DNA of 64,000 bases, taken from positions 366,121 to 430,120 of the forward strand of contig CAWHSF010000003.1 of NCBI GenBank assembly GCA_963832025.1. Direction: 5' to 3'. The number at the start of each line of letters is the position of its first letter. Positions within the stretch are counted from its first letter, which is position 1. Below the pieces are notes generated by a model. The model was not told the DNA's origin. It made no database searches and was given only the letters and a program-made list of their open reading frames with translations. The translations under genes were made by a program, and so were the position numbers. This DNA comes from Candidatus Nomurabacteria bacterium (GTDB lineage Bacteria; Patescibacteriota; Minisyncoccia; Phycocordibacterales; UBA9973). Below, in pieces: positions 5,018 to 64,000 of the stretch.

Positions 5018-8000
5018 ATGAATTCTCGCTTATATCTTGGCGATGATAACAAGAAATACATCTCAACTAAAGAGGCTAGTTCTTTGACGGGTTACTCCAG
5101 AGATTATATAGGCCAACTTGTCCGAAGTAATAAGATAGATTCCCAAAAAATTGGCCGTACATGGTATGTCTCGGAGGAAGCAATTTTGAACTATAAAATA
5201 TTCTCAAATCAATTAGGGTTGGTTCCAGATGTGGCGCCAGAAAAGATCCAAAGTGAAAATTTTATTCAAAATCCGGTCGTGATTCCAGTTCCGAGTGTAA
5301 AACTTCCTGCTCCTTCCGTGTCGGGCGAAAAATTAAAAAAGAACCTAAAAAGAAAAAAAATACTTTTATCAACTTTTAGTTTTCTCCTGATAGCCGGGAT
5401 AGTCTCTGCGAGTGGTATCAATTTTAAAGAAGTCTTTAAAAATACTTTCTCCACGCCCAAAAGTTTTTTATCTGCTAGTTCAATCCAATCATTCCCCAAC
5501 AACAAAACACCGACCATAAACATTTCTGACTTGGCGACTTCATATGAAAATTATCTTACTCCACAAGTAGCAACCTCAAGTAAACCTTCTGCTCCTTCGG
5601 TTGAAAAAATTATTGAAATTGAAAAAAGTCCGGTTACGCAAACTGCTGTTCTTTCCATTTTGCAGAACTTGCTCAGCGAACCGGCAATCCAAAATGAACT
5701 TCGTGGTCCGACTGGACCAACCGGCCCAGCCGGAACTTCGGGAAGCTATGCCACCTACACCAGTTATGTGGCTCCGAATCCGGCAATCAATTATGTCGGC
5801 GCCACTTTTTCTTCCGCTTCCAATTTATCTTCCAACCTCTTGAACACCGGCACAGCCAACATAAATAATTTAGCTGTCTCCGCCGGCGCGATAATCGGAA
5901 GTTTGAATGTGACAGGAGATTCTTCTTTTGGCGGACAAGTTGTCGCCTCAACTGTTGTTGATTCCGGTTTAGTAAACCAAACTTGCATCGGCACCGATGC
6001 ATCAGGCGCATTTGAAGCCGGCACTTGTGGCAGTGGTAGTGGCAGTCAGTGGACAACTAGCGGGTCAGATATTTATTACAACACCGGCAACGTCGGCATC
6101 GGCACAACTTCACCGGCAGCAACGCTCGATGTCACCGGCACAGGTAATTTTTCCGGCGCACTGACCGCGGGAACAATTAACGGCATCACTTTCTCCGGTT
6201 CTTCCACGCCGACGCTCAGTGTCTCCGGAACGGCTTCCGTCTCTGGCGCCAACACCGGAGACAATGCAACCAACACACAATATGCAAATGACTATCGAGC
6301 AGCAAATTTTGTCGCCGGCACAGATTACCAAGCCCCCGTCACTCTCACTACCACCGGCAGTAGCGGAGCTTCCACTTTTTCTAGTAACACTTTAAATATT
6401 CCAAACTACACTCTCGCAGGTCTCGGAGGAATTTCTAATATCTCCGGTCAAGATTTAAGCACAGCCAACAATGCAACATCAAAATTTATAACTTTAGGTT
6501 CGCTTTCTGCCGGAACCGGAATTTCTTACGATAATACGACTGGGATAATTACAAATTCTGCTCCAGACCAAACCGTTGCTTTTTCCGGTGGAACAAATGT
6601 AACGATTGGTGGAACTTATCCAAACTTTACAATTACCGACAACTCCATAACTACGGGAGGAGCCAGAAGCGCAATTTCACTGACAACCACCGGAAGTTCC
6701 GGAGCCTCTACTTATAATTCGGGAACGGGTGTTTTAAATATTCCTCAATATCAAGCAGGATTGAGTTTAATTAAGGGAACTTATGTTGATGGGGATGTTT
6801 GTACTTATGCTTCTACCGGCACTCTTTTAAATTGTAATACCGCGGCATATCAAATAGCTTCTTCCGCTCTTTCTTCCATCGCCGGTCTTGCTTGGTCTTC
6901 CGGAACACCTTTCGTTAAAATGACAGCCTCCGGAACCTTTGCGCTAGATACAAATACATATGCGACCGGAAGTGGAACAGCCAGTGGCACCAACACCGGC
7001 GACCAAACACTTACCATCGGGGGCACAACTTCTCCAACTATCGCCTTATCGGGAAGCAATACAGCAACATTCTCCGCAGGAACAGGAATTACTTTAGGGC
7101 AATCGGCTGGAACGATAACAATTACAAATTCTGCACCTTTCACTGGGGGACTTCTTGCTACCGGTGCAACTACCGGTGCAACAAGCCAAGCTCAAGCGTT
7201 TACCAATGGCATAATCTCTCCGACCATTCTGGGCGGTTCAGGAACAACGCAAACACTTAACTTCCAAACTACTTCAGGGGTGGGTGCAACGGGAGCCGAT
7301 ATGCATTTCAATGTCGGCAACAACGGAGCGACGAATGCCATGACGATTTTGAATAGCGGCAACGTCGGCATCGGGACGACGAGTCCGGCACAGAAGTTAA
7401 CTGTCACTGGTGGAAATATACAAATGACTGATGCTGGGGCGAAATTGTATTTAACAGATGGCTCACATTATGTTTCTTACGACGGCACAAATACGCAAAT
7501 ATTTTCTAGTGTTGGTGGCGTCAATTTAGCAGTTAATACGGCATCTCCTATTTCATTTATAACTAATTCAGCGTACCAAATGAGGTTAAGTGCTACTGGA
7601 GGATTGTCACTTGGTTCAACCTATTATTCTACGGACGCTGGGGCAGGGAATATGATAATACAAGGCAAGGTCGGCATCGGGACGACGACGCCTGCTTATG
7701 GTTTAGATGTAGCAAAAGGGACTGGGGCAACGGCACAATTTTTTGACCAAACCGCGACCACGGGTAGCACGCTTGTTACTATTCAAGCAGGTGCGGCACA
7801 AAACGCTGGAGCTTATACAAATGTTTTGAATTTTGCTGGCAATAATGGAACGACCAGAGGGTATATAGCTGTAGACGGATTGAACGGAGTATCAAAACTA
7901 AATATTACTGATGTTGTCGCTTCAAATGGTAATTGGGAGTTAAAAGATTCGGGCTCGTTAAATATGTATGCTGGCAATTCAATCTACTTGCAAAATGCTC

Positions 8001-11000
8001 ACTCCAACTCTAATATACAATTGTATAACACTGGGGCAACGGGGGTATCGAGTCTAGCAATAATGAACGGCAACGTCGGCATCGGGACCACGGGGCCGAG
8101 TGATTTGTTGCAACTTGGCACTGGAAATTTAAGTTGGTCATCTGATGGTGGCGGTGATATTGGGGCGAGTGGAGGAAATAGACCAGGGAATATTTATGCT
8201 AAGATTCAAGTCAGGGCTGGTGCTGGTTATCTAAATGGTAATACGGTTGGAGGGAGTAGCAATTTTGCTTTGTCTGGTGGTGGTAGTGCTACTTTGACAA
8301 TTGGCGGAACAAGCAACACCATTGTTTTCAAAACTACCGCCTCTAATTCAGAGGTAATGAGGATAGAACCAATAAACGGCAACGTCGGCATCGGGACGAC
8401 GACACCGACGGCTTACTTAAACATCAAAGCAGGAACAGCCACAGCTAACACCGAACCTCTACAACTTACCGCTGGAGTATTAAACACCTCCGCCGTCTCC
8501 GGAGCATTAGAAACAGATGCAAGTAACAATTTATATTACACACCGGGTACAGGAACGAGAGGAATTATTCCTTTGGGCACAGCGGCAAATACTTTGCTCT
8601 TTACTACTACTGGTGCGACGAATGTGACTTTACCAACAAGTGGAACGCTGGCAACACTTGGTTCTCCAACTTTCACTGGCACTGTCACCACACCGGCTTT
8701 AACCATTTCCGGTATCACCGGCAGTACCCAATGCTTACAAGTCAACAGCAGTGGTGTGGTCAGTGGCACATCTGCAGCTTGTGGCGGAGGTGGTGGTTCA
8801 ACTGCTTGGAGCAGTATCACCAACCCAAGCGGAAATCTTTCTTTGGCAATGGCTGGTGACACCAGTACTTTCACTTACGGAGCGACAACCGGTTCAGCAA
8901 ACTTGTTCAACTTAACCGACACCTCTTCCAATACCGGCACTGGAGTTTTGTTGAATGTCTCAACTGCCAGTGGTTCTACTTTAAATCCTTTCTCCGTGAC
9001 TACCGCCGGTGCAACAAATCCGAGCTTGTATGTCGGTTCTAATGGTAACGTTTCAATTGGAACCTCAATTACAAATACTGCAGTTCTGCAAGTACAAGCA
9101 CCGGTTCCGGAGAGTAGTCTTTTTGCTTTTGCGAACCATGATTTTTCTCTGGGTAGCGTAGGAACTGCCATGACGATTGATACCGGAGCTACCTCCGGAG
9201 ATACCTATGTGGATATGCAAGCTTACAACGCTGGTGGAGTTAATGGCGGTCCTTTAGTTTTTAATGCTGCTGGTGGTAATGTCGGGATTGATACAAACGA
9301 CCCAACTACCGCTCTCACCGTTAATGGGAGTATGTCCAATCTCCTTAATCCCAGTTCAGCTTTTTTAAATGTTGTAGGTTCGACATCAATTACTTCTGCT
9401 TCCGTGGTCTACGTCTCCGGTAACTATGCCTATGTGGCAGATTATACCGGTAATGAACTTGATATTGTTGACATTACCAATCCGAATGCTCCCTATGTGG
9501 CTGGCACATTAAGCGGAATTAATCATATCTCTTCCATCTACGTTTCCGGTCGTTATGCCTATGTGACGGACAAAAGTATTGGTGACATGACTATCATTGA
9601 TGTTTCCAATCCGATTTCACCGACTGTGGTCGGTACATTAACCGGACTTAATACTCCTACCTCCATCTACGTTTCTGGTCGTTATGCCTATGTAGCGGAT
9701 AGCGGTAGTGGTGATATGTATGTGATTGATGTTTCCACTCCGAGATTACCGATTGTGGTTGCCACCTTAACCGGGCTGAGTAGTCCTTCCTCCATCTATG
9801 TTTCCGGTCATTATGCCTATGTAGCAGATAGTGGTAGTGGTCACATGTCTATCATCGATATTTCCGATCCGGTTTCACCGAATGTGATAGGTACAGCAAC
9901 CGGACTTGGTAGTCCCTCCTCTGTCTATGTCTCCGGTCGTTATGCCTATGTGACGGATACGGGTAGTGGTAACTTGTATTCCATTGACCTTTCCAACCAA
10001 GCTTCTCCGAGTGTGGTTGGTACGCTACCAGGATTTATTACTCCAACTGATGTCTATGTTTCTGGTAATTTTGCATATGTAACAGACAGTGACGGTGAAC
10101 TCGACGTCGTTGATATTTCCGACCCGACTACTCCGATTTATGATACATATGCAGGACTTACTGCTCCCGACTCGGTCTATGTCTCCGGTCAGTATGCCTA
10201 TGTCGCGGATAGTGGTGGCGGCGATATGGCTGTCATTGACCTAACCGGAACACAAACAACTTCCTTGACCGCCGGGAGTGCGAACATCGGCAACTTGCAG
10301 ATTGCTAATGATTCTTTGGTTGGTGGTCAACTGCAAGTAAATGGTGCCCTGACAGCCAACGGTGGAAACTTTAACAGTGGAGTTGCAGTAAATGGAAATA
10401 TTTCCAATACCATTTCATCTTCTTCTCCTCCGACTGTCGTTGCTACTGCCACCGGGCTGACTAATATCTTAACTGACTATGTCTCCGGTAACTATGCGTA
10501 TGTAGGAACTGGTACCGGTGGTACTGGTCATATGTATATCGTTGATATTTCCAATCCGACTGCTCCGAGTGTTGTCGGTACATTATCAGGGGTTGGTAAG
10601 ATTAATTCTATCTATGTTTCCGGTCAGTATGCCTATGTGTTAGATGATAGTAATGGCTACATGGATGTCGTTGATATTTCCAATCCGCATGCCCCAAGTG
10701 TTGTCGGTACAGTGGTAGGGTTTACTGGTCCTGTATCTATCTATGTTTCCGGTCATTATGCCTATGTGACAGATGCCAATTCTCTGACTTTGTCTGTCAT
10801 CGATGTTTCCAACCCGACTGCTCCGAATCTCATCGGAAGTCCATTGTCGCTGACTGCTCCTCTCTTCATCTATGTTTCCGGTCATTATGCCTATGTGACG
10901 GAAAGTGGTGGGAGCATGGATATCATTGATGTTTCCAATCCGTATTCTCTGAGTATTGTCGGTACAGCCACAGGACTTGGTTCTCTTGATGGCAATGTCT

Positions 11001-12514
11001 ATGTCTCCGGTCGTTATGCGTATGTAACAAATACTGCTAGTAGTGGTGATATGTATGTCGTTGATGTTTCCAATCCAGTTTCTCCAAGTACTGTCGGTAC
11101 ATTAGGACTTTCTTGGCCTCTTGGTATCAATGTCTCCGGTCATTATGCCTATGTGACGAGTTATGCTGGTGGTGGCATGTATGTCCTTGATGTTTCCAAT
11201 CCGACTGCTCCAAGTGCTGTTGCTCTTACACTCGGACTGACTACTCCTTCTTTTATCAGGGTTTCCGGTCGTTATGCCTATGTGGTGGAATCTACTGCTA
11301 GTTCCATGGCTGTCATTGACCTCACTGGTACCCAAACAACTTCTCTCACCTCCGGTAGTGCTAACATCGGTAACTTGCAAATTGCTAATGATGCTTTGAT
11401 TGGTGGTCAACTGCAGGTGAATGGTGGTTTGACGGCAAGTGGTGGAAACTTTTCGGGGGATGTGGCGACTGAGGGATCCTTAAACATTGCTGGATATGTA
11501 GGTATCGGGACGACGATGCCGGACAATCCTCTTACTGTTAACGGCGCAGCGGACAATACTACCGGTGTATGGTCTGTATTTTCTGATGAACGCTTGAAAA
11601 ATATTGACGGCAACTTTAATGATGGCTTGTCCACCCTGATGCAGTTTAATCCGGTTACGTTTACCTATAATGGACAAAATGGAATTTCGGACACTACTAC
11701 ACAGCAAATTGGTATCGTTGCTCAAGACGTGCAACAATTTGCTCCATATATGATAAATACAGTGGAAGGGACATTGAACGGACAGCCTACGAGTCTACTT
11801 CAATTCAACCCGCAAGCATTGCCATATATCACCATCAATGCAGTTAAGGAATTGAATCTAGATTTAGATGCGATTTCGGGATTGACGGTGCCGACTCCGA
11901 CTCCGGAATCTACCAGTTTTGCAACTGCGTTCTTTAAAAATATTGAAACTAAACTTATTGCTTGGTTTGCTGATGCTGGGAATGGAATAGGAGATTTGTT
12001 CGCTGGAACAATTCACGCTACAAATGAACTATGTATCAACACCACTTGCGTGACTCAAGCACAACTGCAAGCACTTTTGGCAAATTTAAATTCAAACGGA
12101 AACGCAGGAAACAATACGTCTGCCAATGCAGGCGAAAATAATTCAAATGTTCAAAATCCGCCTTCCAGTATTCCCGTAATCACTTTGATTGGTGATGCCA
12201 CCATTAATTTAAATGTCGGAGATACTTACACTGAACAAGGAGCAACTGCCACCGAAAATGATAATGCAGTCGCGGTTGTTATCAGCGGGACGGTAGACAC
12301 AACCACTGCCGGCACTTACACTGTTGATTATGATGCGACGGATTCTGCCGGGAACAAAGCGGTTGAAGTTACGAGAACAGTGATTGTTGCAAATGCGCCA
12401 GTTTCAACTTTTTCGTCGGACTCAGGATCTACGGCTACGCCTGCGACAACACCAGATTCAACAACAGCTAATTCCACAACCACTCCAGATTCTAGCACTT
12501 CAACTTCAAACTAA
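5018..12514 (+). CDS. Giant (2498 aa) membrane-anchored surface protein. Domain order: N-terminal excisionase-type HTH, one TM helix, short collagen-like GPT run, tail-fibre-like GNVGIGTTSP repeats, two 7-repeat LVIVD blocks, S74-type intramolecular chaperone domain, Ig-like domain, Thr/Ser-rich tail.
   Basis: Single uninterrupted ORF. HTH: YISTKEASSLTGYSRDYIGQLVRSNKIDSQKIGRTWYV. TM: LLSTFSFLLIAGIVSASGI. Collagen-like: GPTGPTGPAGTSG. Seven G(N/K)VGIG(T/D)T motifs. Fourteen YVSGxYAYVxD...(V/I)(V/I)D(V/I)SNP repeats. S74 domain: SDERLKNI...GIVAQDVQQFAPYMI. Ig-like: ITLIGDATINLNVGDTYTEQGATA...AGTYTVDYDATDSAGN. Confidence 0.85.
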   Translation: MNSRLYLGDDNKKYISTKEASSLTGYSRDYIGQLVRSNKIDSQKIGRTWYVSEEAILNYKIFSNQLGLVPDVAPEKIQSENFIQNPVVIPVPSVKLPAPSVSGEKLKKNLKRKKILLSTFSFLLIAGIVSASGINFKEVFKNTFSTPKSFLSASSIQSFPNNKTPTINISDLATSYENYLTPQVATSSKPSAPSVEKIIEIEKSPVTQTAVLSILQNLLSEPAIQNELRGPTGPTGPAGTSGSYATYTSYVAPNPAINYVGATFSSASNLSSNLLNTGTANINNLAVSAGAIIGSLNVTGDSSFGGQVVASTVVDSGLVNQTCIGTDASGAFEAGTCGSGSGSQWTTSGSDIYYNTGNVGIGTTSPAATLDVTGTGNFSGALTAGTINGITFSGSSTPTLSVSGTASVSGANTGDNATNTQYANDYRAANFVAGTDYQAPVTLTTTGSSGASTFSSNTLNIPNYTLAGLGGISNISGQDLSTANNATSKFITLGSLSAGTGISYDNTTGIITNSAPDQTVAFSGGTNVTIGGTYPNFTITDNSITTGGARSAISLTTTGSSGASTYNSGTGVLNIPQYQAGLSLIKGTYVDGDVCTYASTGTLLNCNTAAYQIASSALSSIAGLAWSSGTPFVKMTASGTFALDTNTYATGSGTASGTNTGDQTLTIGGTTSPTIALSGSNTATFSAGTGITLGQSAGTITITNSAPFTGGLLATGATTGATSQAQAFTNGIISPTILGGSGTTQTLNFQTTSGVGATGADMHFNVGNNGATNAMTILNSGNVGIGTTSPAQKLTVTGGNIQMTDAGAKLYLTDGSHYVSYDGTNTQIFSSVGGVNLAVNTASPISFITNSAYQMRLSATGGLSLGSTYYSTDAGAGNMIIQGKVGIGTTTPAYGLDVAKGTGATAQFFDQTATTGSTLVTIQAGAAQNAGAYTNVLNFAGNNGTTRGYIAVDGLNGVSKLNITDVVASNGNWELKDSGSLNMYAGNSIYLQNAHSNSNIQLYNTGATGVSSLAIMNGNVGIGTTGPSDLLQLGTGNLSWSSDGGGDIGASGGNRPGNIYAKIQVRAGAGYLNGNTVGGSSNFALSGGGSATLTIGGTSNTIVFKTTASNSEVMRIEPINGNVGIGTTTPTAYLNIKAGTATANTEPLQLTAGVLNTSAVSGALETDASNNLYYTPGTGTRGIIPLGTAANTLLFTTTGATNVTLPTSGTLATLGSPTFTGTVTTPALTISGITGSTQCLQVNSSGVVSGTSAACGGGGGSTAWSSITNPSGNLSLAMAGDTSTFTYGATTGSANLFNLTDTSSNTGTGVLLNVSTASGSTLNPFSVTTAGATNPSLYVGSNGNVSIGTSITNTAVLQVQAPVPESSLFAFANHDFSLGSVGTAMTIDTGATSGDTYVDMQAYNAGGVNGGPLVFNAAGGNVGIDTNDPTTALTVNGSMSNLLNPSSAFLNVVGSTSITSASVVYVSGNYAYVADYTGNELDIVDITNPNAPYVAGTLSGINHISSIYVSGRYAYVTDKSIGDMTIIDVSNPISPTVVGTLTGLNTPTSIYVSGRYAYVADSGSGDMYVIDVSTPRLPIVVATLTGLSSPSSIYVSGHYAYVADSGSGHMSIIDISDPVSPNVIGTATGLGSPSSVYVSGRYAYVTDTGSGNLYSIDLSNQASPSVVGTLPGFITPTDVYVSGNFAYVTDSDGELDVVDISDPTTPIYDTYAGLTAPDSVYVSGQYAYVADSGGGDMAVIDLTGTQTTSLTAGSANIGNLQIANDSLVGGQLQVNGALTANGGNFNSGVAVNGNISNTISSSSPPTVVATATGLTNILTDYVSGNYAYVGTGTGGTGHMYIVDISNPTAPSVVGTLSGVGKINSIYVSGQYAYVLDDSNGYMDVVDISNPHAPSVVGTVVGFTGPVSIYVSGHYAYVTDANSLTLSVIDVSNPTAPNLIGSPLSLTAPLFIYVSGHYAYVTESGGSMDIIDVSNPYSLSIVGTATGLGSLDGNVYVSGRYAYVTNTASSGDMYVVDVSNPVSPSTVGTLGLSWPLGINVSGHYAYVTSYAGGGMYVLDVSNPTAPSAVALTLGLTTPSFIRVSGRYAYVVESTASSMAVIDLTGTQTTSLTSGSANIGNLQIANDALIGGQLQVNGGLTASGGNFSGDVATEGSLNIAGYVGIGTTMPDNPLTVNGAADNTTGVWSVFSDERLKNIDGNFNDGLSTLMQFNPVTFTYNGQNGISDTTTQQIGIVAQDVQQFAPYMINTVEGTLNGQPTSLLQFNPQALPYITINAVKELNLDLDAISGLTVPTPTPESTSFATAFFKNIETKLIAWFADAGNGIGDLFAGTIHATNELCINTTCVTQAQLQALLANLNSNGNAGNNTSANAGENNSNVQNPPSSIPVITLIGDATINLNVGDTYTEQGATATENDNAVAVVISGTVDTTTAGTYTVDYDATDSAGNKAVEVTRTVIVANAPVSTFSSDSGSTATPATTPDSTTANSTTTPDSSTSTSN

Positions 12515-28322: not shown

Positions 28323-28412
28323 TTTTCCTCACAAAACACGGCCAACGCTTCCTTGCAAAGAAGCGTTGGCCACCTCTATTTTATGGGGATTTTTTGTGCT
28401 ATAAATACCAAC

Positions 28413-29167
28413 ATGCGCTTTCACGTCATTACAATTTTTCCAGAAATTTTCGACTCATATTTAAATGAGTCTATAATTGGGCGGGCGATTAGAGATAAAA
28501 AAATTTCTGTAAAATTTTACAATCCACGAGATTTTATTAAAGCACCTAAAAATAATTACCGGCCGGTAGATGACAAGCCGTACGGTGGCGGTCCGGGTAT
28601 GGTGATGCGGGCCGAGCCGATACTGAAAGCAGTAGAATCTGTATTAAAAAAAATAAAAAATAAAAAAGTTTTAATTATCAATTTTATTCCCAGTGCGGAA
28701 AAATTTACGACCGCTGCCGCGAAAAAATTTCCAAAAAATATACGGAAATTATTTTAATCTGCGGAAGATACGAAGGGATTGATGCCAGAATCGATAAAAT
28801 TTTAAAAACAAAAAAATTTTCAATCGGCGACTATGTTCTGACGGGCGGGGAATTGCCGGCCTTGGTTTTAATTGATTCTGTCTCTCGCCAAGTTCCCGGA
28901 GTTTTGGGCAAATATGAATCTTTGGAAGAAGAAAGAATTTCTAGTAGCGAGGTTTACACTCGTCCAGAAATCTTGAGATATAAACCTTCTAAGGCTATAA
29001 AAAATTTATATAAAAGTTACAAAGCATGTCCCGTAGGAAGTACTCTTTCCTTCGGGGTTCCAAAAATTCTACTTTCAGGGAATCACAAACAGATAGAAGA
29101 ATGGAAGAAATCCCAGGCCTTAGAAAAGTTTATATATATATCATGCTATGCAAAGAGAAATTTTTAA
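28413..29167 (+). CDS. trmD: tRNA (guanine37-N1)-methyltransferase, with a frame break in an A6 run
   Basis: Motifs MRFHVITIFPEIF, VDDKPYGGGPGMVM, ICGRYEGIDARI, SIGDYVLTGGELPALVLIDSV and LLSGNHKQIEEW. The two pieces join at the A6 run 28733-28738. Confidence 0.85.
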
Positions 29168-50860: not shown

Positions 50861-52108
50861 ATGAGACAATCTAAACTTTTTACAAAAACCAGAAAAGAAA
50901 GCCCGGCGGACGAAGTTTCCAAGAATGCGGAATTTTTAATCCGTGGAGGCTTTGTGCACAAAGAGATGGCGGGGGTGTATAGTTATTTGCCGTTGGGTTT
51001 GCGAGTATTGCGAAAAATCGAGAATATCATCAGGGAAGAAATGAACAAGGTTGGTGGACAAGAAGTCTTGATGTCCACGATGCAACCGAAAGATAATTGG
51101 GAGAAAACCGGTAGATGGACCGCGATGGATGATTTGTATAAAGTCGGAGATTCTTCCGGCAGAGAAGTTGCACTCGGTCCCACTCACGAGGAAATTGTAG
51201 TTCCTATTTTGAAAAACTATGTCACATCCTATAAAGATTTTCCGGTGGCTGTTTACCAGATTCAAAATAAATTTCGTATGGAACTTCGCGCAAAATCCGG
51301 AATGTTGCGAGGCCGCGAATTTATCATGAAAGATATGTATTCCTTTCATACCTCCCAGGAAGATTTTGAACAATTTTACGAAAAAATGAAAGATGTTTAT
51401 AAAACAGTTTTTAATCGAGTCGGTATTGGGCATCTGACCTATCTTACTTTTGCTTCCGGTGGAACTTTCTCAAAATATTCTCACGAATTTCAGACAATTA
51501 CAGGAGCTGGTGAAGATACTATCTATATAGATGAAGGAAGTGGGCAAGCAATTAATCAAGAAATTTCCGGCGATGATGAAGTTTTAACCGCTCTGAATTT
51601 AAGCGCAGAAAAACTAGTTGAACATAAGTCCATCGAAGTCGGAAACATTTTTGATTTAAAGACTAAATATTCAAAACCATTCGATTTATCTTTCACCGAC
51701 GAAAAAGGCGAAAAACATATTGTTTTGATGGGTTGTTATGGAATTGGACTCGGTAGGCTTATGGGTACGGTGGTAGAAGCTCTTTCCGATGACAAAGGGA
51801 TTATTTGGCCGGAAGCTGTGGCACCTTTCATGGTACATTTTCTGGCTCTCGGAGGGGACGAAGCAGTTTCCAAAGAAGCGGAGAAAGTTTATGAAAGCTT
51901 GGAAAAGGCCGGTGTGGAAGTTTTATTTGATGACCGTAAAGATATTTCTGCGGGGGAAAAATTTTCCGATGCGGATTTACTCGGTATTCCTTATCGTGCC
52001 GTTGTCTCCGCTCGCAGTTTAAAAGAGAATGGAATTGAATTAAAAAAACGTTCAGAAGAAAAAGGGAAAATCGTAACTCTAGAAGAATTATTGAAAGTTT
52101 TAAAAATA
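50861..52108 (+). CDS. proS: Proline--tRNA ligase, short form without the INS editing domain. There is no stop codon before mreB in this assembly.
   Basis: Motifs MRQSKLFTKTRKESP...AEFLIRGGF, YQIQNKFRMELRAKSGMLRGREFIMKDMYSF and GCYGIGLGRLMG, plus the anticodon-binding C-terminus. Confidence 0.9.
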
Positions 52109-53156
52109 ATGTTTGAAAAAATTTACAAATTAATCAGTAACGACATCGGCATAGACCTCGGGACTTCAAATACCTTGGTGTATTTGAAAGGGCAGGGTAT
52201 CGTCATAAACGAACCTTCGGTGGTGGCGGTGAATATAAAGACCAATCAAATTTTGGCTGTTGGTACGCAAGCGAAAGAAATGCTTGGACGCACTCCAGGA
52301 CACATCAAGGCGATTCGTCCGCTCGTGGATGGTGTCATTTCTGATTTTGAAGTGACCGAAGAAATGCTTTCTTATCTCATAAACAAAGCGGATAAAATGT
52401 CCAAAAAATTAGCTCGACCGAGAGTGCTCGTCGGTGTGCCTTCCGGCACTACCAACGTAGAGACTCGCGCGGTGTATGATGCGGCACGCAGCGCCGGTGC
52501 GCGAGAAGTTTTTTTAGTTGAAGAACCAATGGCGGCAGCTATCGGCATACGACTTCCCATCAAAGACCCAGTCGGTTCGATGATTATAGATATTGGTGGC
52601 GGTACGACGGACATTGCAGTCATTTCTTTGGGTGGAATTGTAAAATCTAAAAATTTAAAAATAGCTGGCGATAGATTGAACAATGACATCATCAGTTATA
52701 TGCGTGATGAATTTAAAATATTAATTGGCGAGAGAACGGCTGAAATGGTAAAAATCGCTATCGGTTCTGTCATCTCAAGGCGAATATATGGAAACAGAAA
52801 TTCATGGGCGGGACCTCTTGACTGGCTTACCGAGAGAAGTGGTGGTGACTGATTCTGATATTCGTGAAGCACTTGCTGTCTCAATCAAAGGTCTAGTTGA
52901 AGGCGTAAAAGACATGTTGGAAACAACCCCACCGGAAATTTTATCGGACATAATGCACCGAGGTATTACTCTCTCTGGTGGTGGAGCTTTGCTTCCGGGG
53001 CTTGATCAAATGTTGCAAAAAGTTCTTAAAATTCCGGTTTATGTAGTGGAAGACCCACTTTCGGCTGTGGCTCGTGGCACCGGAGTTATTTTAGACGATA
53101 TTGCTCTTTATAAAGAAGTTTTGATTGGTAATCAAGATGAGTTACCTCCTAGATAA
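52109..53156 (+). CDS. mreB: Rod-shape protein MreB, with one frame break near 52770
   Basis: Motifs IGIDLGTSNTLVY, NEPSVVA, RPLVDGVISDF, IDIGGGTTDIAVISLGG, then (other frame) GRDLLTGLPRE and TLSGGGALLPGLD. Confidence 0.88.
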
Positions 53157-53975
53157 AAAAATACAAAGAAAAAAATTTTTTAAAATTGCACTCGGTGTGG
53201 TTGTTTTAATTATTTTATTTTTTTTTCGAACGGGTGTTTGGAACGGATTTTCGGATGTCAGTGAAATAATTTTTCATCCAGTTTTAGTTTTAGGAAAAGG
53301 AATTGAAGAAAAGTTCAAAGATATCGGTTCATATTTTGTTTCCAAAAGTTATCTTTATAATCAAAATCAAAAATTACAAGCAGAGGTTTCTTTTGATGAT
53401 GCACGAATGGCAAACTATAATTCTTTGGTTGCGGATGATGCCAGCTTGAAAGAAATTTTAAGCAGAAAGACCCGAAAGTAAATATGACTTTGGCCGCTAT
53501 TTTATCTAAGCCAAACCAAAGTCCTTATGATACCTTATTGATTGATGCGGGAACTAGCCAAGGTGTCGTAACAGGAAATACGGTTTTTGCTTTAGGCGAT
53601 GTGCCAATTGGTCGTATTTCAGATGTTTATCTAAATTCTGCCAAAGTAGTTTTATTTTCTAATCCGGGAGAAACAACACAAGCAATGATTTCATATCAAA
53701 ATCTCACGCCATCAGCAACTAATTCAACTGCCTCTTCTCCCAACAGTAATGTCTTTGTAAATTTAGTCGGAAGAGGTGGTGGAAATTTTGAAATTGTCAT
53801 ACCAAAAGGTGTGGTTTTGGAAGAGGGAGAGCAAGCGGTATTGCCGGGTATCAATGATTATGTTTTGGGTATTGTGCAAAAAGTAATTTCCGACCCGCGC
53901 AATGCTTTTACCAAAGTATTATTAACTAGTCCGATAAATATTGAGGAGCAAAAATTTGTGGAAATAGAGCAATAG
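53137..53975 (+). CDS. mreC: Rod-shape protein MreC, with one frame break near 53466-53475
   Basis: N-terminal TM helix, a coiled segment (NQNQKLQAEV), then SPYDTLLIDAGTSQGVVTGNTVFALGDVPIGRISDV, typical of the MreC beta-barrel core. Position is directly after mreB. Confidence 0.75.
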
Positions 53976-54032: not shown

Positions 54033-55344
54033 ATGGAATTTAAAATTGAGAAAAAATTAAAAGGAAGTCTTGGGCGTGCGGGGGTTTTAAAAACAGCACA
54101 TGGAGAAATACACACTCCGGCTTTTGTGGCTGTGGGCACGAAAGCAACAATCAAATCTTTGAATCCGGAACAAGTTCGTGAGGCTGGCGTGGAAGTGGTA
54201 CTTGGCAATACTTATCATTTATATTTACAACCGGGGGATGAAATCGTGCGTGATGCGGGGGGAATAGGGAAGTTTATGAATTGGAAGGGTCCGACCATGA
54301 CCGATTCCGGCGGTTTCCAAGTTTTTTCTTTGGGCGTGGCTTATGGAAAAGATATTTCGAAAATTACCAAAGCCGTGACTGACCCATCGCTTTTAATTCC
54401 GGAACGTTTTGACGATAGTGATGCTCCGCGTTTGGCAAAAATTGGGCAAGACGGAGTTTCTTTTAAATCACATCTAGATGGCTCGGTTCATTACATTACT
54501 CCCGAAAAATCAATTCAAATACAGCACAATCTTGGTGCAGATATAATTTTTGCATTTGATGAATGCACAAGCCCGACAGAAGATTTGAAATATCAAGAAG
54601 AAGCGCTGGAACGCACCCATCGCTGGGCGGAGAGAAGTTTAAGAGAGCATTCTAGGCTTGTCGCCTCGGCTGATACTTTTGCTCAGTCGCTCGGTCCCTC
54701 GCCAAGCTCAGCCACTCCTTTGCAAAAGCATGCATCCTCGGCTCCAGAAAAACTTGAAAGAAGTTTCGCACCAGCTCTTTTTGGCATCGTGCAAGGAGGC
54801 AGAGATGAGCGACTCCGAAAAGAAAGCGCGAAAGCAATCAGCGCTATGGACTTTTGATGGTTTCGGTATTGGTGGAAGTTTTGCCAAAGAAGATATGTCT
54901 ACCGCCGTGCGTTGGGTGAATGAAATTTTGCCGGAAGAAAAACCTAGGCATTTGCTCGGTATCGGCGAACCGGAAGATTTATTTATGGGAGTAGAAAATG
55001 GTGTAGATTTATTTGATTGTGTTTTGCCGACACGGCTCGGTAGAAATGGGACGATTTACACCCAGAATGGAAAAATAATAATAATGAACACAAAATTCAG
55101 AAATGATTTTTCTCCAATTGAAAAAGATTGCGAATGTTACACTTGTAAAAATTATACCAAGGCTTATGTTGCGCATCTCTTTCATGGCAAGGAAATGTTG
55201 GCAGGAACACTAGCATCTATTCACAATTTGCATTTTATAGTCAATTTAGTGAAAAATATTCGGCAATCAATTTTAAATGATAATTTTTTTGAATTTAAAG
55301 AAGATTTTCTTAAAGGGTACTCTGAGACGTTGGACATCTGCTAA
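54033..55344 (+). CDS. tgt: Queuine tRNA-ribosyltransferase, with a GC-rich internal insertion and a frame break in a T4 run
   Basis: Motifs HTPAFVAVGTKATIK, LGNTYHLYLQPG, TDSGGFQVFSL, FDECTSP, LFGIVQGG, GFGIGG, PRHLLGIGEPEDL and zinc site CECYTCKNYTKAY...H. Pieces join at the T4 run 54852-54855. Confidence 0.88.
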
Positions 55345-59931: not shown

Positions 59932-60103
59932 CAATGATCCGCGAGAACAGCTGGGAGCTGCTTGAGCGAATCATCATTGTGTGACATGAGAGACGAGAAA
60001 GGCGGAGGCCGACGGGCCGAGCCGGGGTAGCGAAATTTTTCAGTAGAAAAATATTTGTGACCGAGTCTCCTAATGTCCACAGTTGTTCTTTGGAAAATTA
60101 AAT

Positions 60104-60157
60104 TCGGGAGTAGCTCAGCGGTACCTGCCTGCCGGCAGGCAGGGGGCGGTCGCCTGT
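60104..60157 (+). pseudogene. Orphan 5-prime half of tRNA-Asn (acceptor to anticodon positions 34-35) carrying a 20-bp palindrome in the D arm
   Basis: tcgggagtagctcagcggta[cctgcctgccggcaggcagg]gggcggtcgcctgt matches the intact tRNA-Asn 5-prime half at 60415-60448, apart from the insert and one substitution. Confidence 0.75.
60124..60143. repeat. Family C 20-bp perfect palindrome inside the tRNA-Asn 5-prime fragment
   Basis: CCTGCCTGCCGGCAGGCAGG, inserted relative to the intact tRNA-Asn D arm. Confidence 0.9.
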
Positions 60158-60171
60158 GATATGATTTAGAA

Positions 60172-60435
60172 ATGGAGGAAAATTTCGTTTACGCCATAAA
60201 AAGCATAAAGGATGGCAGAATTTATGTTGGAATGAGTCGTAACCCGTAAAAGAGATTGTTGGAACACAACAGCGGAAAAGTTTTTTCTACGAAAGGTTTT
60301 CGTCCTTGGATTCTGATATTTTTTGAAAATACTGGCGCAAGTAGAATTTATGCCAGAATTAGGGAAAAATATTGGAAATCAGGGTGTGGTAAGGAAAAAT
60401 TGAAAAAAGAATATTCGGGAGTAGCTCAGCGGTAG
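60172..60435 (+). pseudogene. Small GIY-YIG (COG2827/YhbQ-like) nuclease gene with an in-frame TAA at 60247-60249. Its 3-prime end runs into tRNA-Asn.
   Basis: Translation: MEENFVYAIKSIKDGRIYVGMSRNP*KRLLEHNSGK...GFRPWILIFFE...ARIREKYWKSG. This is the GIY...YVG...R...EHN pattern of the GIY-YIG fold. Confidence 0.7.
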
Positions 60436-60486
60436 AGCGGTCGCCTGTTAAGCGATTGGTCGTAGGTTCGATCCCTACCTCCCGAG
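60415..60486 (+). tRNA. tRNA-Asn (anticodon GUU)
   Basis: tcgggagtagctcagcggtagagcggtcgcctGTTaagcgattggtcgtaggttcgatccctacctcccgag folds as a canonical cloverleaf. Confidence 0.9.
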
Positions 60487-60676
60487 CATTACGTGGACTT
60501 TCAGCGTAGAGTTCTTCTATTTGTCCTCGTATTTTTACCTATTTTGAGAGGTTCTAACCGTTTATTTTCAATCACTACATCTTTTAAGGGAATTAGCGTT
60601 TTTTCCATATCAATCACTACGATTTTGTCTTTTAACGACGAGGTGCGAACCTAATTGGATGAATACCTCTTTTTTC

Positions 60677-62037
60677 TCAAAGGTTCGCCTTTTTCAAACT
60701 TGGCTCTTGCATCTCTGGCAAAGTCAGCAAACCTCGTCTGCTTTTTTCATAAAGCAGGTCAACATCCTTGCCCGTCTTGTTAAAGATATTTTCCCAGCGT
60801 TGTTTTTCTGCTGTTAGTGGTTCTTTACGCATTTTAAATTCCTCCTCGGTTAATTCTTGATTGGCTCGCATATCAATCAAGCCCGACAATTTTTTCAAGC
60901 ATTCTTTATATGCCTTATTTTGCGTATCAAGGATGGATTCGGTTGTTTGAGCTTGTTTGGCGTTTTCTTTTCTAAACCACTTCAAAGCAAAATCGTGCAA
61001 ATCTGGCGGGAATGGTTAGTGAATCAATTTCTGTTTTAATTTGTTTTTCCAATTCTTTTTGCTCAATACATTTCTGGGTGCAGTTTGGATTTATGCGTTT
61101 CGTGCAATGGTAATAAATATATCTGTGTATGTTGCCGTTCTTGTTGCCTTTTGATTTTTTCTTCTGCTGTAATGCTTGCTCCGCACTCTCCGCACTCCAT
61201 AAGCCCCGTAAAGGCGAAAATATGCGTCTTGGGGCGAGGTTTGCCTTTCTGCCGAGATATTACTTGTATCTTGTCGTATTCTTCTGCAGTCATTAAAGGT
61301 TTATATGTCCCTTTATACCAAATACCACTTCCTTTCGGATATTCGAAAATCCCGTAATAAGCGGTATTAGTGAAAATATAGTAAATCGTATTTCTGCTCA
61401 TCTTTTTGCCATTGGGCATTTTAAAGCCCCATTCTTCGTTGGCTATATTTCTCTGATTTTTAACGGAGTATAAAGACCCGTAAGCATCATATCAACCATT
61501 TTACGAACCAAATCAAATCTTTCTGGGTCTGGGTAAATTTGCTTTTTACCTCGTTCGTCATATTTATTATTTTTATATCCAGTCGGGGCGGGTGCAGGAT
61601 ACATTCCTTTTTCAGCTTTTGTTTTTAATCCTCGTTTTACATCTTCGCCCTTGTTATCATTTTCCAGTTTCGCTTGATTACAAAACAGAGCAAGCATAAA
61701 TTTATCGTTGGGGATATTGCGCTATAAATTTGGCTTGGAGTTCTGACTTCAACCAGTTTCCCTAAATCCATTAAATACACAATCTTGCCTGTATCTATTG
61801 GATTTCGTGAAATTCTGCTTGGCGCTCCAAACCAAAAGCCCATTGGCATAGCCATTGTCAATTTTTTCAACCAGTTCGGCAAATTTAGGTCTGTTGAGTT
61901 TTTTTGCCGAGTGTGATTCTTCAATAATTTCAATACTATTCATGCTTTTCTCGTTTCGCAACAACTTAAAGTTCTTTTCTTGCGATTCAATAGATCAAAA
62001 CTTGCCTATCTTCTTGTTCGGAAGTATTTACGACAGT
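60677..62037 (-). pseudogene. Large serine recombinase split over at least five frame-shifted pieces
   Basis: Pieces read, in order: TVVNTSEQEDRQ...SIESQEKEL; SAKKLNRPKFAELVEKIDNGYANGLLVW; RISRNPIDTGKIVYLMD; recombinase domain GYKNNKY...RFDLVRKMVDMML...YYIFTNTAYYGIFEY; Zn ribbon GLMECGECGASITAEE; coiled-coil tail. Confidence 0.75.
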
Positions 62038-62059
62038 AAATAATATATTTGGTTGGCTG

Positions 62060-62251
62060 TTAATTTTGTTTTCCATTGGTTTTTGCTTTATTCAAAAAAC
62101 TATCAAACTCTTTTTTATCAATTCTAAATTCCTTACCTATCTTATAGGATTTTAATTTTCCACACCAATATAGCGATAAATAGTCATTATATTTACCCTT
62201 AATTTTTCTGCTAATTCTTTGGCTGTGTAAAAATCTTGTTTCTTTTTTCAT
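62060..62251 (-). CDS. Excisionase-type HTH (HTH_17-like) DNA-binding protein
   Basis: C-terminus LKSYKIGKEFRIDKKEFDSFL. The best HTH reading of the middle part (FYTAKELAEKLRVNIMTIYRYIGVEN) lies in a neighbouring frame, which implies two compensating indels near A runs. Confidence 0.6.
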   Translation of the reverse strand: MKKETRFLHSQRISRKIKGKYNDYLSLYWCGKLKSYKIGKEFRIDKKEFDSFLNKAKTNGKQN

Positions 62252-62258
62252 AATTTTT

Positions 62259-62420
62259 TTATTCTTTATTTAAGCTCTTTCTTATTTCTTGTAAAATCAA
62301 CATTGTCTCTGTATCTTCTGGAATATCTATCTCGCCACATTTTGGACATCTAGTTTCACAGCAGGGACAATAATTAAAATTACACTTCTTACAATCTACT
62401 GGTTTTATTTCTATGGGCAT
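62259..62420 (-). CDS. 53-aa zinc-ribbon protein (below the ORF-track cutoff)
   Basis: Translation: MPIEIKPVDCKKCNFNYCPCCETRCPKCGEIDIPEDTETMLILQEIRKSLNKE. Tightly packed between the rep and HTH genes. Confidence 0.4.
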   Translation of the reverse strand: MPIEIKPVDCKKCNFNYCPCCETRCPKCGEIDIPEDTETMLILQEIRKSLNKE

Positions 62421-62437
62421 AAGTCTATTATACTTTA

Positions 62438-63673
62438 CTATTCTTTACATAGCAAAGAATCAAAGTGTATAACTTTTTCCAAAGAAGTTAAGCTAATAAA
62501 CTCAAATCTATCAAGCTGTTGGGTTATGTAAGAAATACCTTGAGGCACTGGAATATCCTTTACTAATTCGGTGGCAATATCCAACTTCTCAAGCAATCTG
62601 TTGTCTTTATTTGCCCATATCTTATTTAGTTCATTTTTTACAGTTTTTGCTCCGTGCTCTTTTATAACTTGGACTAGACCATAAATCCATAGAGCTTTAT
62701 TTTGGCTATGGGCACTAGGATTTTCCAGTTTAGCGTTTCTTAAAATGTGTAGCAGTAAATCCAAAGAGCTTGTATAGCTTAAAAGGGCTAACTGATTTTC
62801 TGGGCGTTGCAATATATTTTTCCATCCTCTCGCTAATACAGTTTTCCAAAGTCCATCTGTGAAAAGGTCTGCAACTGTGATTTTATCTTGATATGTTTTT
62901 CCCAACAATGCGTGAAGTTCGCTTTTTATTGTTTGATGCTTATTCAAGCGGTATTCATATCTAAAAACTTCAAGATTTTCAAAAGCTGGAGAAGATAGTA
63001 ATTCTTTTTCGTAAGTAGTTCTTGTTTTATCCGCTCTTTTACTCTTCGGTTGTCTAGCATCGTCTGCCTTATCGTAAAAACACCATTCACGAGAACCACA
63101 AAATAAATGCACTACCTTGCCAGCATTTTTATTTCTTTGTCTGCGAACATCTTCGGTTGTGTCGTATGCCTTTCCCATATCCGTGCGAGAAAGGTCAGAA
63201 AGTATGCTTCGTATGGCAATTTCTCTGGGTAAGATTATATTTTTACAGAAATGAACCACTGAAACAGGGGCTTGCTTTATTGCTTCTACTGAAATTAGGA
63301 TGCCAGCTTCCGCCAACCTTTGTGTTGTTAAAACTAATATTCTATCTTTATCCAAAACCTTAATTTCTTCAAAATTATTTCCCAAAAGGAGTTTTGGTAT
63401 TGAATGGATTGTGATAACTATTTCATATATGACTCTGCCTATTGTGGCATCCGCTTTTTCATACACTTCAACACTGGGATAGTATGTGTCCTCGTCATCT
63501 TTTACTGGATGGAGGATAAATTTACGCAAATATTCATTACCTCTCAATCCTTTACTTCTAATTCTTTCTTTTTGAGAAAGGTCTGAAAAATTTCTAACAG
63601 AAAATTCTGTATTGAAATTTGCTCTCTCTGTTATTCTGAAATTTTCTTTAATGCGAAATGATATTGTGTCCAT
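62438..63673 (-). CDS. Replication initiation protein (Rep_trans / phage CRI-like, rolling-circle type)
   Basis: VVHLFCGSREWCFYDKADD and EVFRYEYRLNKHQT resemble the G-S-R...YDK and R-x-E-x-R/L blocks recalled for Rep_trans/G2P initiators. N-terminus DTISFRI. Confidence 0.55.
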   Translation of the reverse strand: MDTISFRIKENFRITERANFNTEFSVRNFSDLSQKERIRSKGLRGNEYLRKFILHPVKDDEDTYYPSVEVYEKADATIGRVIYEIVITIHSIPKLLLGNNFEEIKVLDKDRILVLTTQRLAEAGILISVEAIKQAPVSVVHFCKNIILPREIAIRSILSDLSRTDMGKAYDTTEDVRRQRNKNAGKVVHLFCGSREWCFYDKADDARQPKSKRADKTRTTYEKELLSSPAFENLEVFRYEYRLNKHQTIKSELHALLGKTYQDKITVADLFTDGLWKTVLARGWKNILQRPENQLALLSYTSSLDLLLHILRNAKLENPSAHSQNKALWIYGLVQVIKEHGAKTVKNELNKIWANKDNRLLEKLDIATELVKDIPVPQGISYITQQLDRFEFISLTSLEKVIHFDSLLCKE

Positions 63674-63724
63674 AATGATTTAAAAATGTTGGCTATAAAT
63701 TTCTTGGAATCCTATTTATATTCT

Positions 63725-63886
63725 TTAATGATAATTTTCATCAAAACCTGAAGTATTGAAATAAACAGCACTATAAAGAGCCACGAGATTATTTGCTCGG
63801 CGAGTTGCTTCTTCGTCCGAAAGTTCAACACCATAATTTTTGGCGTAAAGTTTCTTGTATTCTTCTATGGCTTCTTTTGGCAACAT
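63725..63886 (-). CDS. 53-aa hypothetical protein of the element
   Basis: Translation: MLPKEAIEEYKKLYAKNYGVELSDEEATRRANNLVALYSAVYFNTSGFDENYH. Same strand as the element genes. Confidence 0.3.
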   Translation of the reverse strand: MLPKEAIEEYKKLYAKNYGVELSDEEATRRANNLVALYSAVYFNTSGFDENYH

Positions 63887-64000
63887 AGCTAACCCCGAAG
63901 GGTTAACTATAAAATAACAAAAGAGTCGCTACGCTTAACATACGCCTTTGCTATTTTCTCCAATAAAAATAAGCCCATAATCTAGGCAATTATAAAAACT

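Follow-up and report, generated by a model that had tools for sequence, protein, structure and literature searches.

A probable small integrative element with a gpII-like replication protein and an apparently decayed serine recombinase gene beside tRNA-Asn in a Patescibacteria chromosome

Where a cluster of tRNA genes gives way to a run of genes on the opposite strand, the question arises whether a mobile element has entered the chromosome, to which kind it belongs, and whether it can still leave. The locus considered here is located at the end of a 64,000-nucleotide (nt) stretch of a Candidatus Nomurabacteria contig (CAWHSF010000003.1 of assembly GCA_963832025.1, positions 366,121 to 430,120), denoted the window in the following. 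A tRNA-Asn(GTT) gene is followed there by a fragmented large serine recombinase (LSR) gene, several small open reading frames (ORFs) and an intact gene, rep, for a protein of 411 amino acids (aa). Positions 60488-64000 probably belong to a small integrative element, of which they form the integrase-proximal end and which is inserted at the 3' end of the tRNA-Asn gene in a Paceibacteria/Nomurabacteria-like chromosome of the Patescibacteria; this grade of confidence applies to the explanation as a whole, encompassing the element family, its life cycle, and the decay of the copy in the window.

The tRNA-Asn gene is the last member of a tRNA cluster downstream of glnA and the RNase P RNA, and its 3' end reads …GGTTCGATCCCTACCTCCCGAGC. 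As stated in the original prediction, which had been made by a model from the bare sequence, the element adjoins this gene and the coding direction changes there: from 60488 to the window end, homology-supported ORFs are found exclusively on the minus strand. The 3' part of the tRNA gene also constitutes, in antisense, the 3' end of the recombinase reading frame. GC content is 34.9% in the element stretch compared with 39.5% in the remaining (host) part of the window. The region is not shared in synteny by sister genomes. Two contigs (L053 and L054) have S2, an aminoacyl-tRNA synthetase, mreB, mreC, tgt, odc, DUF192, RNase P and glnA (82-83% identical) in common with the window; in both, tRNA-Asn is followed by unrelated genes and tblastn detected neither Rep nor LSR, this empty-site comparison being one with different genera and not within the species of the window host. 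A repeat of the tRNA-Asn 3' end was sought within 60488-64000 and is absent, so that the other end of the element lies outside the window, again as predicted. The window harbors no second copy of Rep or LSR.

The recombinase is covered jointly by four or five ORF fragments, the longest of which comprise 98-118 aa. The fragment at 61749-61964 matches the Resolvase domain (PF00239) with an E value of 3.9e-4 and 21 bits, just below the cutoff of 23.3, as well as PHROG 125 and 95, and the fragment at 61443-61697 matches the PHROG 95 integrase (E 5.6e-17). The next one (61063-61419) reaches 27.7 bits for Recombinase (PF07508; cutoff 21.1) and 20.6 bits, below cutoff, for Zn_ribbon_recom (PF13408), and the charged, helical tail (60677-61000) is a putative coiled coil. 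The closest relative found, a 10.95-kb groundwater contig (L001), served as reference for the LSR, HTH_17 and rep comparisons. It encodes an intact LSR of 528 aa that carries PF00239, with 84% nucleotide identity to the LSR region of the window. Relative to this homologue, the window sequence (62076 to ~60475) shows 22 indels of 1-2 nt, 16 insertions and six deletions, mostly outside homopolymers, and an uninterrupted LSR reading frame is not present in the window. A fragmented LSR with resolvase, recombinase and Zn ribbon domains had been proposed and is confirmed. The features are compiled in Table 1.

Table 1. Coordinates of the element's features and of frameshifted host genes in the window
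Feature	Position	Strand	Basis or remark
tRNA-Asn(GTT)	60415-60487	+	ARAGORN call; Rfam tRNA, 70.6 bits; probable integration target, attL side
LSR pseudogene (resolvase, recombinase domain, Zn ribbon, coiled-coil tail)	60475-62076	-	Pfam/PHROG fragment matches; nucleotide alignment with L001
HTH_17 (excisionase/MerR-type) small gene, frameshifted	62060-62262	-	Pfam HTH_17; alignment with L001
53-aa ORF with three CxxC motifs, Zn-ribbon-like	62259-62420	-	ORF list; uninterrupted
Intact 411-aa Rep, putative catalytic Tyr200	62438-63673	-	Family profile; Phage_CRI-matching relatives; alignment with M13 gpII
Conserved non-coding site AGGATTCCAAGAAATTTATAGCCAACA	63687-63713	-	13 nt upstream of the rep ATG; pattern scan; upstream alignment
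53-aa ORF 'c3'	63725-63886	-	Uninterrupted; directly upstream of rep
mreB	52109-53153		One frameshift relative to sister genomes
mreC	53269-53969		One frameshift relative to sister genomes
tgt	54033-55320		One frameshift relative to sister genomes
trmD	28353-29167		One frameshift relative to sister genomes

The neighbor of the LSR gene had been described as an excisionase-type helix-turn-helix gene, a description that stands for half of it. The 63-aa ORF at 62060-62251 is a frame chimera, of which only the C-terminal half is homologous to the HTH_17 protein. Compared with the intact 60-aa gene of L001, it carries a 4-nt insertion after the start codon and a 1-nt deletion in mid-gene. Since this deletion puts the N-terminal half of the helix-turn-helix in another frame, the weak and partial Pfam match (E 0.003) is limited to residues 31-56, and the gene is not intact. 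Its product is a possible recombination directionality factor or regulator. The three remaining ORFs of the original prediction, the CxxC ORF, the 411-aa ORF and the small ORF upstream of it, are present and uninterrupted. The CxxC ORF is situated on a 150-bp insertion specific to the window element and absent from L001; it has no homologue in any related locus and no match in Pfam or PHROG.

The intact 411-aa protein is predicted to act as a rolling-circle initiator or nickase and to be a diverged representative of the Phage_CRI/Rep_trans (non-HUH) superfamily, with Tyr200 as its putative catalytic residue. This assignment was reached through the protein family, which amounts to 185 clusters at 90% identity in a word-seeded search and to 1020 representatives at 50% identity in an exhaustive profile search. 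Nearly all members have a length of ~360-410 aa, and those with a name are 'hypothetical' proteins from metagenome-assembled genomes of Patescibacteria. Among 54 diverse members, ten match Pfam PF05144 (Phage_CRI), the N-terminal domain of the replication initiator gpII of filamentous phages, with a best E value of 1.8e-10, and three match PF02486 (Rep_trans) weakly (best 1.2e-3). A bridging member, P0151, obtains 30.1 bits on Phage_CRI, thereby exceeding the curated cutoff (21.7), and is also found with the profile built from the close homologues of the window Rep (E 2.3e-53). In one single comparison, the hidden Markov model (HMM) of the family matched M13 gpII with an E value of 9e-4; hhalign gave an E value of 0.016 but a probability of 2.8%, in the same register as the HMM.

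In this register, Y200-D-K202 is placed on Y197-L-K199 of gpII, and R238-x-E240 on R243-x-E245. Tyr-197 is the gpII residue that becomes covalently joined to the nicked strand (PMC5405960). Y200, K202, R238 and E240 are invariant among 50 homologues, and Y200, K202 and E240 are still invariant in the distant set of 54 members. The two blocks that had led to the proposal of a Rep_trans/Phage_CRI-like protein, GSREWCFYDK and FRYEYRL, were thus rightly singled out, aligning with the catalytic Tyr-x-Lys and Arg-x-Glu of gpII/Rep_trans. The order of the motifs, (H/T)-x-Y-x-G, x-Y-x-K, an acidic residue five positions on (D205) and R-x-E, corresponds to that of strands 9-11 of Rep_trans. The Rep_trans active-site pattern was derived from the structures of RepDE and RepSTK1, with Y191/K193/E196/R212/E214 as the counterparts in RepD, and its authors note similar motifs in Phage_CRI (PMC4797284). 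The AlphaFold2 model of Rep (predicted local distance difference test score 87.7, and 86.5 for the N-terminal domain modeled alone) shows a beta-rich N-terminal domain, whose strands bear the motif residues, and a helical C-terminal domain. One family member of 450 aa (P0234) has an HTH_17 domain fused to the C-terminus of Rep (E 4.7e-11).

Upstream of rep, a non-coding site is conserved, which reads AGGATTCCAAGAAATTTATAGCCAACA in the window and in close relatives and GG(N)TTCCTTGAAA(N4)CCGACAACA in most others. This 26-nt site starts ~34 nt before the rep ATG. With a pattern covering both forms it was found there in 39 of 40 loci and at no other position in the 680 kb scanned on both strands, with a single occurrence in the window. 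In an alignment of the DNA upstream of rep, the conservation of the block exceeds that of the coding sequence on its flanks, and the Reps of the loci that share it have identities down to ~37%. A sigma-70 promoter alone is insufficient to explain the conserved CCGACAACA part. Alignment inspection revealed no consistent hairpin or stem around the site, and a likeness to the M13 origin (TTCCAA...CAACA) has the wrong spacing and was treated as chance. In rolling-circle origins, the nick region is typically the conserved part, and such origins are commonly found just upstream of rep. For these reasons, the block is proposed as a candidate nick or binding site of Rep (double-strand origin or oriT), possibly overlapping the rep promoter/operator. 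The site is doubled in two relatives, in tandem in L010 (9940-9990) and 70 nt apart in L022 (9896 and 9966). The small ORF 'c3', which follows further upstream, has homologues in equal position in 17 related loci and no match in Pfam or PHROG; it possibly encodes a regulator. A GC-rich hairpin (AACCC-TTCG-GGGTT, 63890-63905, minus strand) is located directly upstream of this ORF, and the homology to L001 starts inside it, at 63897; the hairpin possibly acts as a terminator or marks the border of a module.

The window element is one of ~40 related loci. A scan of one genome per species yielded 35 of them, and further contigs were obtained by exact-protein look-ups. All but one of the 35 are titled Patescibacteria or unclassified bacteria, their hosts being Sungbacteria, Giovannonibacteria, Kaiserbacteria, Nomurabacteria, Adlerbacteria, Paceibacteria, and bins labelled Saccharibacteria; the one remaining match, weaker and partial, comes from a bin that bears the label Patiriisocius. 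Clustering of ORFs revealed a common layout consisting of a large protein (250-650 aa), a DUF5659 protein (~90 aa), a small ORF (53-76 aa, the 'c3' homologue), Rep, sometimes HTH_17, an LSR (535-583 aa), and a tRNA gene on the opposite strand. In all 25 loci for which LSR-tRNA pairing was scored, the LSR ORF ends 10-62 nt inside the tRNA gene, which follows ~1.75 kb after rep and encodes tRNA-Asp (13), tRNA-Gln (four), tRNA-His (three), tRNA-Glu (three), or tRNA-Asn (two). Upstream, the relatives usually carry a type III restriction-modification pair as cargo, a type I M+S pair in L001, and sometimes a reverse transcriptase. Of the searches made to extend the window, exact-protein look-ups for Rep, the 53-aa ORF and the cluster member P0387 were negative, that for glnA gave only a 4.3-kb contig, a 31-nt pattern (63950-63980) was not found in metagenome contigs, and the motif scan gave only more distant relatives. 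In L005 (11382-13710 of JBGGHH010000168.1, GCA_041643075.1), a Rep/LSR element adjoins not a tRNA gene, but a truncated Mg_chelatase/Mg_chelatase_C fragment of 207 aa (comM-like 3' part), which suggests that some family members target comM.

Both ends of the element could be delimited in some relatives. Repeats of 18-20 nt of the tRNA-Asp 3' end, reaching the T loop, are found 10.6 kb upstream in L014 and 9.3 kb upstream in L021; they bound complete elements of these lengths, and relatives with both ends measure ~7-11 kb. For these two elements, the repeats point to a crossover close to the T loop. A candidate attP site or circular junction was considered in L001, L027 and L048 and rejected. 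The window can be aligned with L001 as far as the anticodon loop of the tRNA (60449), beyond which the three relatives have a 'GTGGACTATATC' motif in common. This shared stretch represents the 3' portion of a group I intron located in the tRNA gene of these hosts (Rfam RF00028, 84.7 bits, E 1e-21 in L027, 12838-13161, minus strand; a weak truncated match in L003). Because the shared sequence is an intron, the homology break at 60449 says nothing about the crossover. Several hosts have such an intron in the anticodon loop of the tRNA gene that adjoins the element (tRNA-Asn in L027; tails of L001-L004 and L048), and these interrupted genes are missed by ARAGORN. L045 and L046 were considered as one element in two contexts and rejected as such, since the two loci do not part until downstream of tRNA-Asp and tRNA-Met, within the DNA of the host.

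It is possible, albeit on balance still doubtful, that the element in the window represents a class of small integrative replicons which has not been described before and is widespread among the Patescibacteria, characterized by a divergent gpII-like Rep, the nearly invariant 26-nt site and an LSR gene ending inside a tRNA gene; such elements would be a main vehicle of restriction-modification and defense genes in bacteria of the Candidate Phyla Radiation (CPR). Four aspects appear to be new: a Rep family without a Pfam or PHROG model, its spread throughout the Patescibacteria, the systematic use of LSRs on tRNA genes, and the invariant site upstream of rep. Integration of serine recombinases into tRNA genes has been called rare (PMC3218068). 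Elements with int/xis/rep modules at tRNA genes are already well known, among them the integrative and conjugative elements of actinomycetes and the integrative mobilizable elements of streptococci (PMC3218068, PMC5704250), and Rep_trans-type proteins act in integrative and conjugative elements, too (PMC4797284). No published description of the elements themselves was found in the literature searched, a survey that was itself incomplete.

A life cycle can be proposed from this arrangement. The LSR would recombine an attP site overlapping the 3' end of its own gene with the 3' part of the tRNA gene, and the tRNA would thereby be restored. Excision would again be governed by the LSR, perhaps with the HTH_17 protein, and the excised circle might be amplified by rolling-circle replication or transferred. 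The gpII-like Rep would nick the origin through Tyr200, with the 26-nt site as the best origin candidate, and the upstream cargo would usually be a restriction-modification or other defense module. In the genome at hand, the LSR and HTH_17 genes would have decayed with rep and its upstream site intact, leaving the copy locked in.

The decay has to be distinguished from assembly noise. MreB, MreC and TGT carry one frameshift each across ~9 kb of conserved host genes, a background of ~0.3 per kb, and MreB is 92-96% identical at the amino-acid level to a sister genome on either side of its break. These frameshifts suggest an indel-noisy assembly rather than gene loss. In comparison with L001, the LSR gene has 22 indels, the HTH_17 gene two and rep none, and the density in the LSR gene is ~14 per kb; the claim that the recombinase has more breaks than the housekeeping genes was correct. 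Because this density is ~40-fold above the background and stops abruptly at rep, the decay of the LSR and HTH_17 genes is regarded as real. With these two genes broken, the element has most likely lost the ability to leave its site. The immobilization considered in the original prediction is accordingly judged likely, with a remaining doubt from the frameshifts in essential genes of the same assembly. rep itself (1236 nt) is 89% identical to its counterpart in L001, with 74% of the substitutions at codon position 3; the L001 Rep likewise has 411 aa, is 94% identical, and is followed there by the intact 60-aa HTH_17 and 528-aa LSR genes. To judge from this substitution pattern, rep appears to be under purifying selection along the lineage of the window and L001. 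Its intactness may reflect a recent inactivation of the element or continued selection on Rep.

Several observations weigh against the explanation given here. Direct annotation of the 411-aa protein had to be rejected as a route: it has no match in Pfam (E <= 1), PHROG, NCBIfam, or PDB sequences and profiles, nor by tblastn in phage (50,697 records) and plasmid collections. The metal-binding strand R-x-D-x-A-x-D is replaced by H141-x-C-K144-N145; the predicted strand 136-147 reads VSVVHFCKNI, with H141, K144 and N145 conserved, where gpII has SRIDATF. Foldseek searches of PDB with the full-length and N-terminal models placed no solved Rep_trans structure in the top 50; the best matches (E 3e-3) were unrelated curved-sheet folds, with nothing at E <= 0.001. 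No circular contig was found, and neither excision nor a circular form nor nicking was observed. The left end and the cargo of the window's own element fall beyond position 64000. As for the decay, the single frameshifts in MreB, MreC, TGT and TrmD of the same assembly, the excess of insertions (16:6) in the LSR gene and its retained third-position bias (62% of its substitutions relative to L001) leave room for part of the fragmentation being an assembly artefact. The LSR could thus be intact in the organism and its fragmentation a product of the consensus, either of collapsed divergent copies or of an unpolished long-read consensus. This would fit the frameshifts in conserved essential genes, MreB among them with 96% amino-acid identity to the sister genome, as well as LSR indels that are mostly insertions and lie mostly outside homopolymers. 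It would not fit an indel density ~40-fold above that of the host genes, the fall to zero in the adjacent 1.24 kb of rep, the damage to the neighboring HTH_17 gene, and a non-synonymous share raised to 39%, compared with 27% in a pair of intact LSRs. An artefact is therefore considered rather improbable.

Two further explanations concern the nature of the element. The 411-aa protein could mainly be a MOB_T-type relaxase, which nicks oriT for transfer by a helper system, like NicK of ICEBs1, Orf20 of Tn916 and RelSt3, and not a vegetative initiator; the element would then be an integrative mobilizable one. The relaxases of Tn916 and ICEBs1 belong to the Rep_trans superfamily (PMC4797284), and integrative mobilizable elements that combine a serine recombinase with a relaxase of this kind are common (PMC5704250). 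The weak Rep_trans matches of three of the 54 family members point in the same direction, and the conserved site upstream of rep would be equally fit as an oriT. However, the family is nearer to Phage_CRI than to Rep_trans, both in the number of matching members (ten versus three) and in the best E value (1.8e-10 versus 1.2e-3), and no coupling protein, FtsK/TraB-like or type IV secretion system gene is conserved in the related elements. Few conjugative systems are known from Patescibacteria. A relaxase role and a replication role do not exclude each other, as NicK performs both, and a predominantly mobilizing function is held to be unlikely. Less probable still is an integrated filamentous prophage with morphogenesis genes beyond 64000. 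The original prediction had left the choice between an integrated plasmid and an inovirus-like phage, of which the integrated mobile element is upheld and the inovirus is not. A phage would be in line with the kinship of Rep to gpII and with structural matches to BFVD entries, at E ~1e-6 to three unnamed viral proteins and, weakly (E 0.011), to 'GST REP [Inoviridae sp.]'. Some CPR genomes have been predicted to contain inoviruses (PMC6813254), and the filamentous phage phiRSM integrates into a tRNA gene via a serine recombinase, as cited in PMC3218068. Set against this, the ~40 related elements, two of them with both ends defined, have no conserved Walker-A/Zot-like (pI) ATPase, coat genes, or small transmembrane proteins: scans of conserved proteins of no assigned function with Pfam and PHROG yielded no Zot, and the conserved module of 39 loci contains neither a Walker-A ATPase nor a small transmembrane protein. 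Moreover, the cargo of the relatives is restriction-modification or reverse transcriptase, tblastn gave zero matches in the phage records, and both Rep relatives and the cis motif are absent from IMG/VR. An inovirus is unlikely because the relatives lack a Zot-like ATPase and coat genes and do not occur in IMG/VR.

The preferred reading of a small integrative element with a gpII-like Rep invites comparison with known systems. With gpII of the Ff phages (PF05144), Rep shares the length (411 versus 410 aa), family members that pass the Pfam model, a Tyr-x-Lys strand on the catalytic Tyr-197 followed by an Arg-x-Glu strand, and a conserved non-coding site ahead of the gene, comparable in position to the Ff origin, which precedes gene II. 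In contrast to gpII, the window Rep has no detectable pairwise similarity or direct Pfam match, its relatives in Patescibacteria come without pI, pIV or coat genes and are integrated by an LSR, and the putative origin is unrelated in sequence except for short AT-rich words. Rep_trans proteins (PF02486; RepC/RepD of pT181-type plasmids, RstA of CTXphi, NicK, Orf20) display the same strand order of (T/H)-x-Y-x-G, x-Y-x-K, acidic residue and R-x-E (PMC4797284), a catalytic N-terminal domain rich in beta strands with a helical domain after it, as predicted for Rep, and, in NicK and Orf20, a tie to integrative elements. They differ from Rep in the metal strand (H-x-C-K-N in Rep), in that Pfam matches so few members and only weakly, and in that Foldseek retrieved neither RepDE nor RepSTK1.

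Among integrated elements, a minority of the actinomycete (pSAM2-type) integrative and conjugative and the streptococcal integrative mobilizable elements use serine recombinases as well (PMC3218068). They resemble the window family in their small size, the int/xis/rep module, the tRNA 3' end as target, and a Rep of the rolling-circle type whose action is presumed to follow excision. The window family differs by a Rep of another superfamily (RepSA of pSAM2 is of the HUH type), the absence of an FtsK/TraB-like gene, the Patescibacteria host, an LSR gene that always ends inside the tRNA gene (25/25), and a cargo of mainly restriction-modification and defense genes. phiRSM of Ralstonia, inserted in tRNA-Ser, likewise combines filamentous-phage replication with a serine recombinase targeting a tRNA 3' end. 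Its recombinase is small and resolvase-like and it is a virion-forming inovirus, in contrast to the Patescibacteria elements with their LSRs of 530-580 aa and no morphogenesis genes.

Mobile elements of Patescibacteria/CPR bacteria are poorly charted, these organisms having tiny genomes, few recognized plasmids, and no obvious conjugation machinery. The element family is recognizable by its Rep (at least 1000 clusters at 50% identity), the 26-nt motif and the Rep-LSR-tRNA layout, which offers a handle for finding such elements and for delimiting genomic islands in metagenome-assembled genomes of the CPR. It possibly provides the first replicating or integrating vectors for uncultured CPR organisms, and it adds dozens of natural LSRs with defined tRNA attB sites, enzymes that are sought for genome engineering. 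Should the reading as an undescribed class be true, the survival of rep and its site beyond the integration machinery may point to selection on Rep. The message of the window itself is modest, namely that of a decaying copy.

The tRNA cluster next to glnA is a recurrent landing pad for LSR elements, including ones with other replication modules, because a contig of a sister species (L052; MFUF01000012.1 of GCA_001785625.1) encodes a different, intact LSR of 536 aa (9542-11152, minus strand) that ends inside the neighboring tRNA-Ala(TGC). This LSR is followed by an HTH_36 protein and genes of no known identity, and the near-identical contig L053 has no LSR. L052 was considered as the partner of an occupied/empty pair for the window element and was rejected, as it carries a different LSR element, in tRNA-Ala. 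The gap between tRNA-Ala(TGC) and tRNA-Asn measures ~480 bp in the window (59933-60414) compared with 23 bp in L053. This spacer contains short ORFs only, one of them of 59 aa (60256-60435), and might be a leftover of an earlier insertion. Elsewhere in the window, the aminoacyl-tRNA synthetase and MreB ORFs are fused into one ORF of 663 aa (50861-52852), and the largest gene is an ORF of 2498 aa (5018-12514, plus strand).

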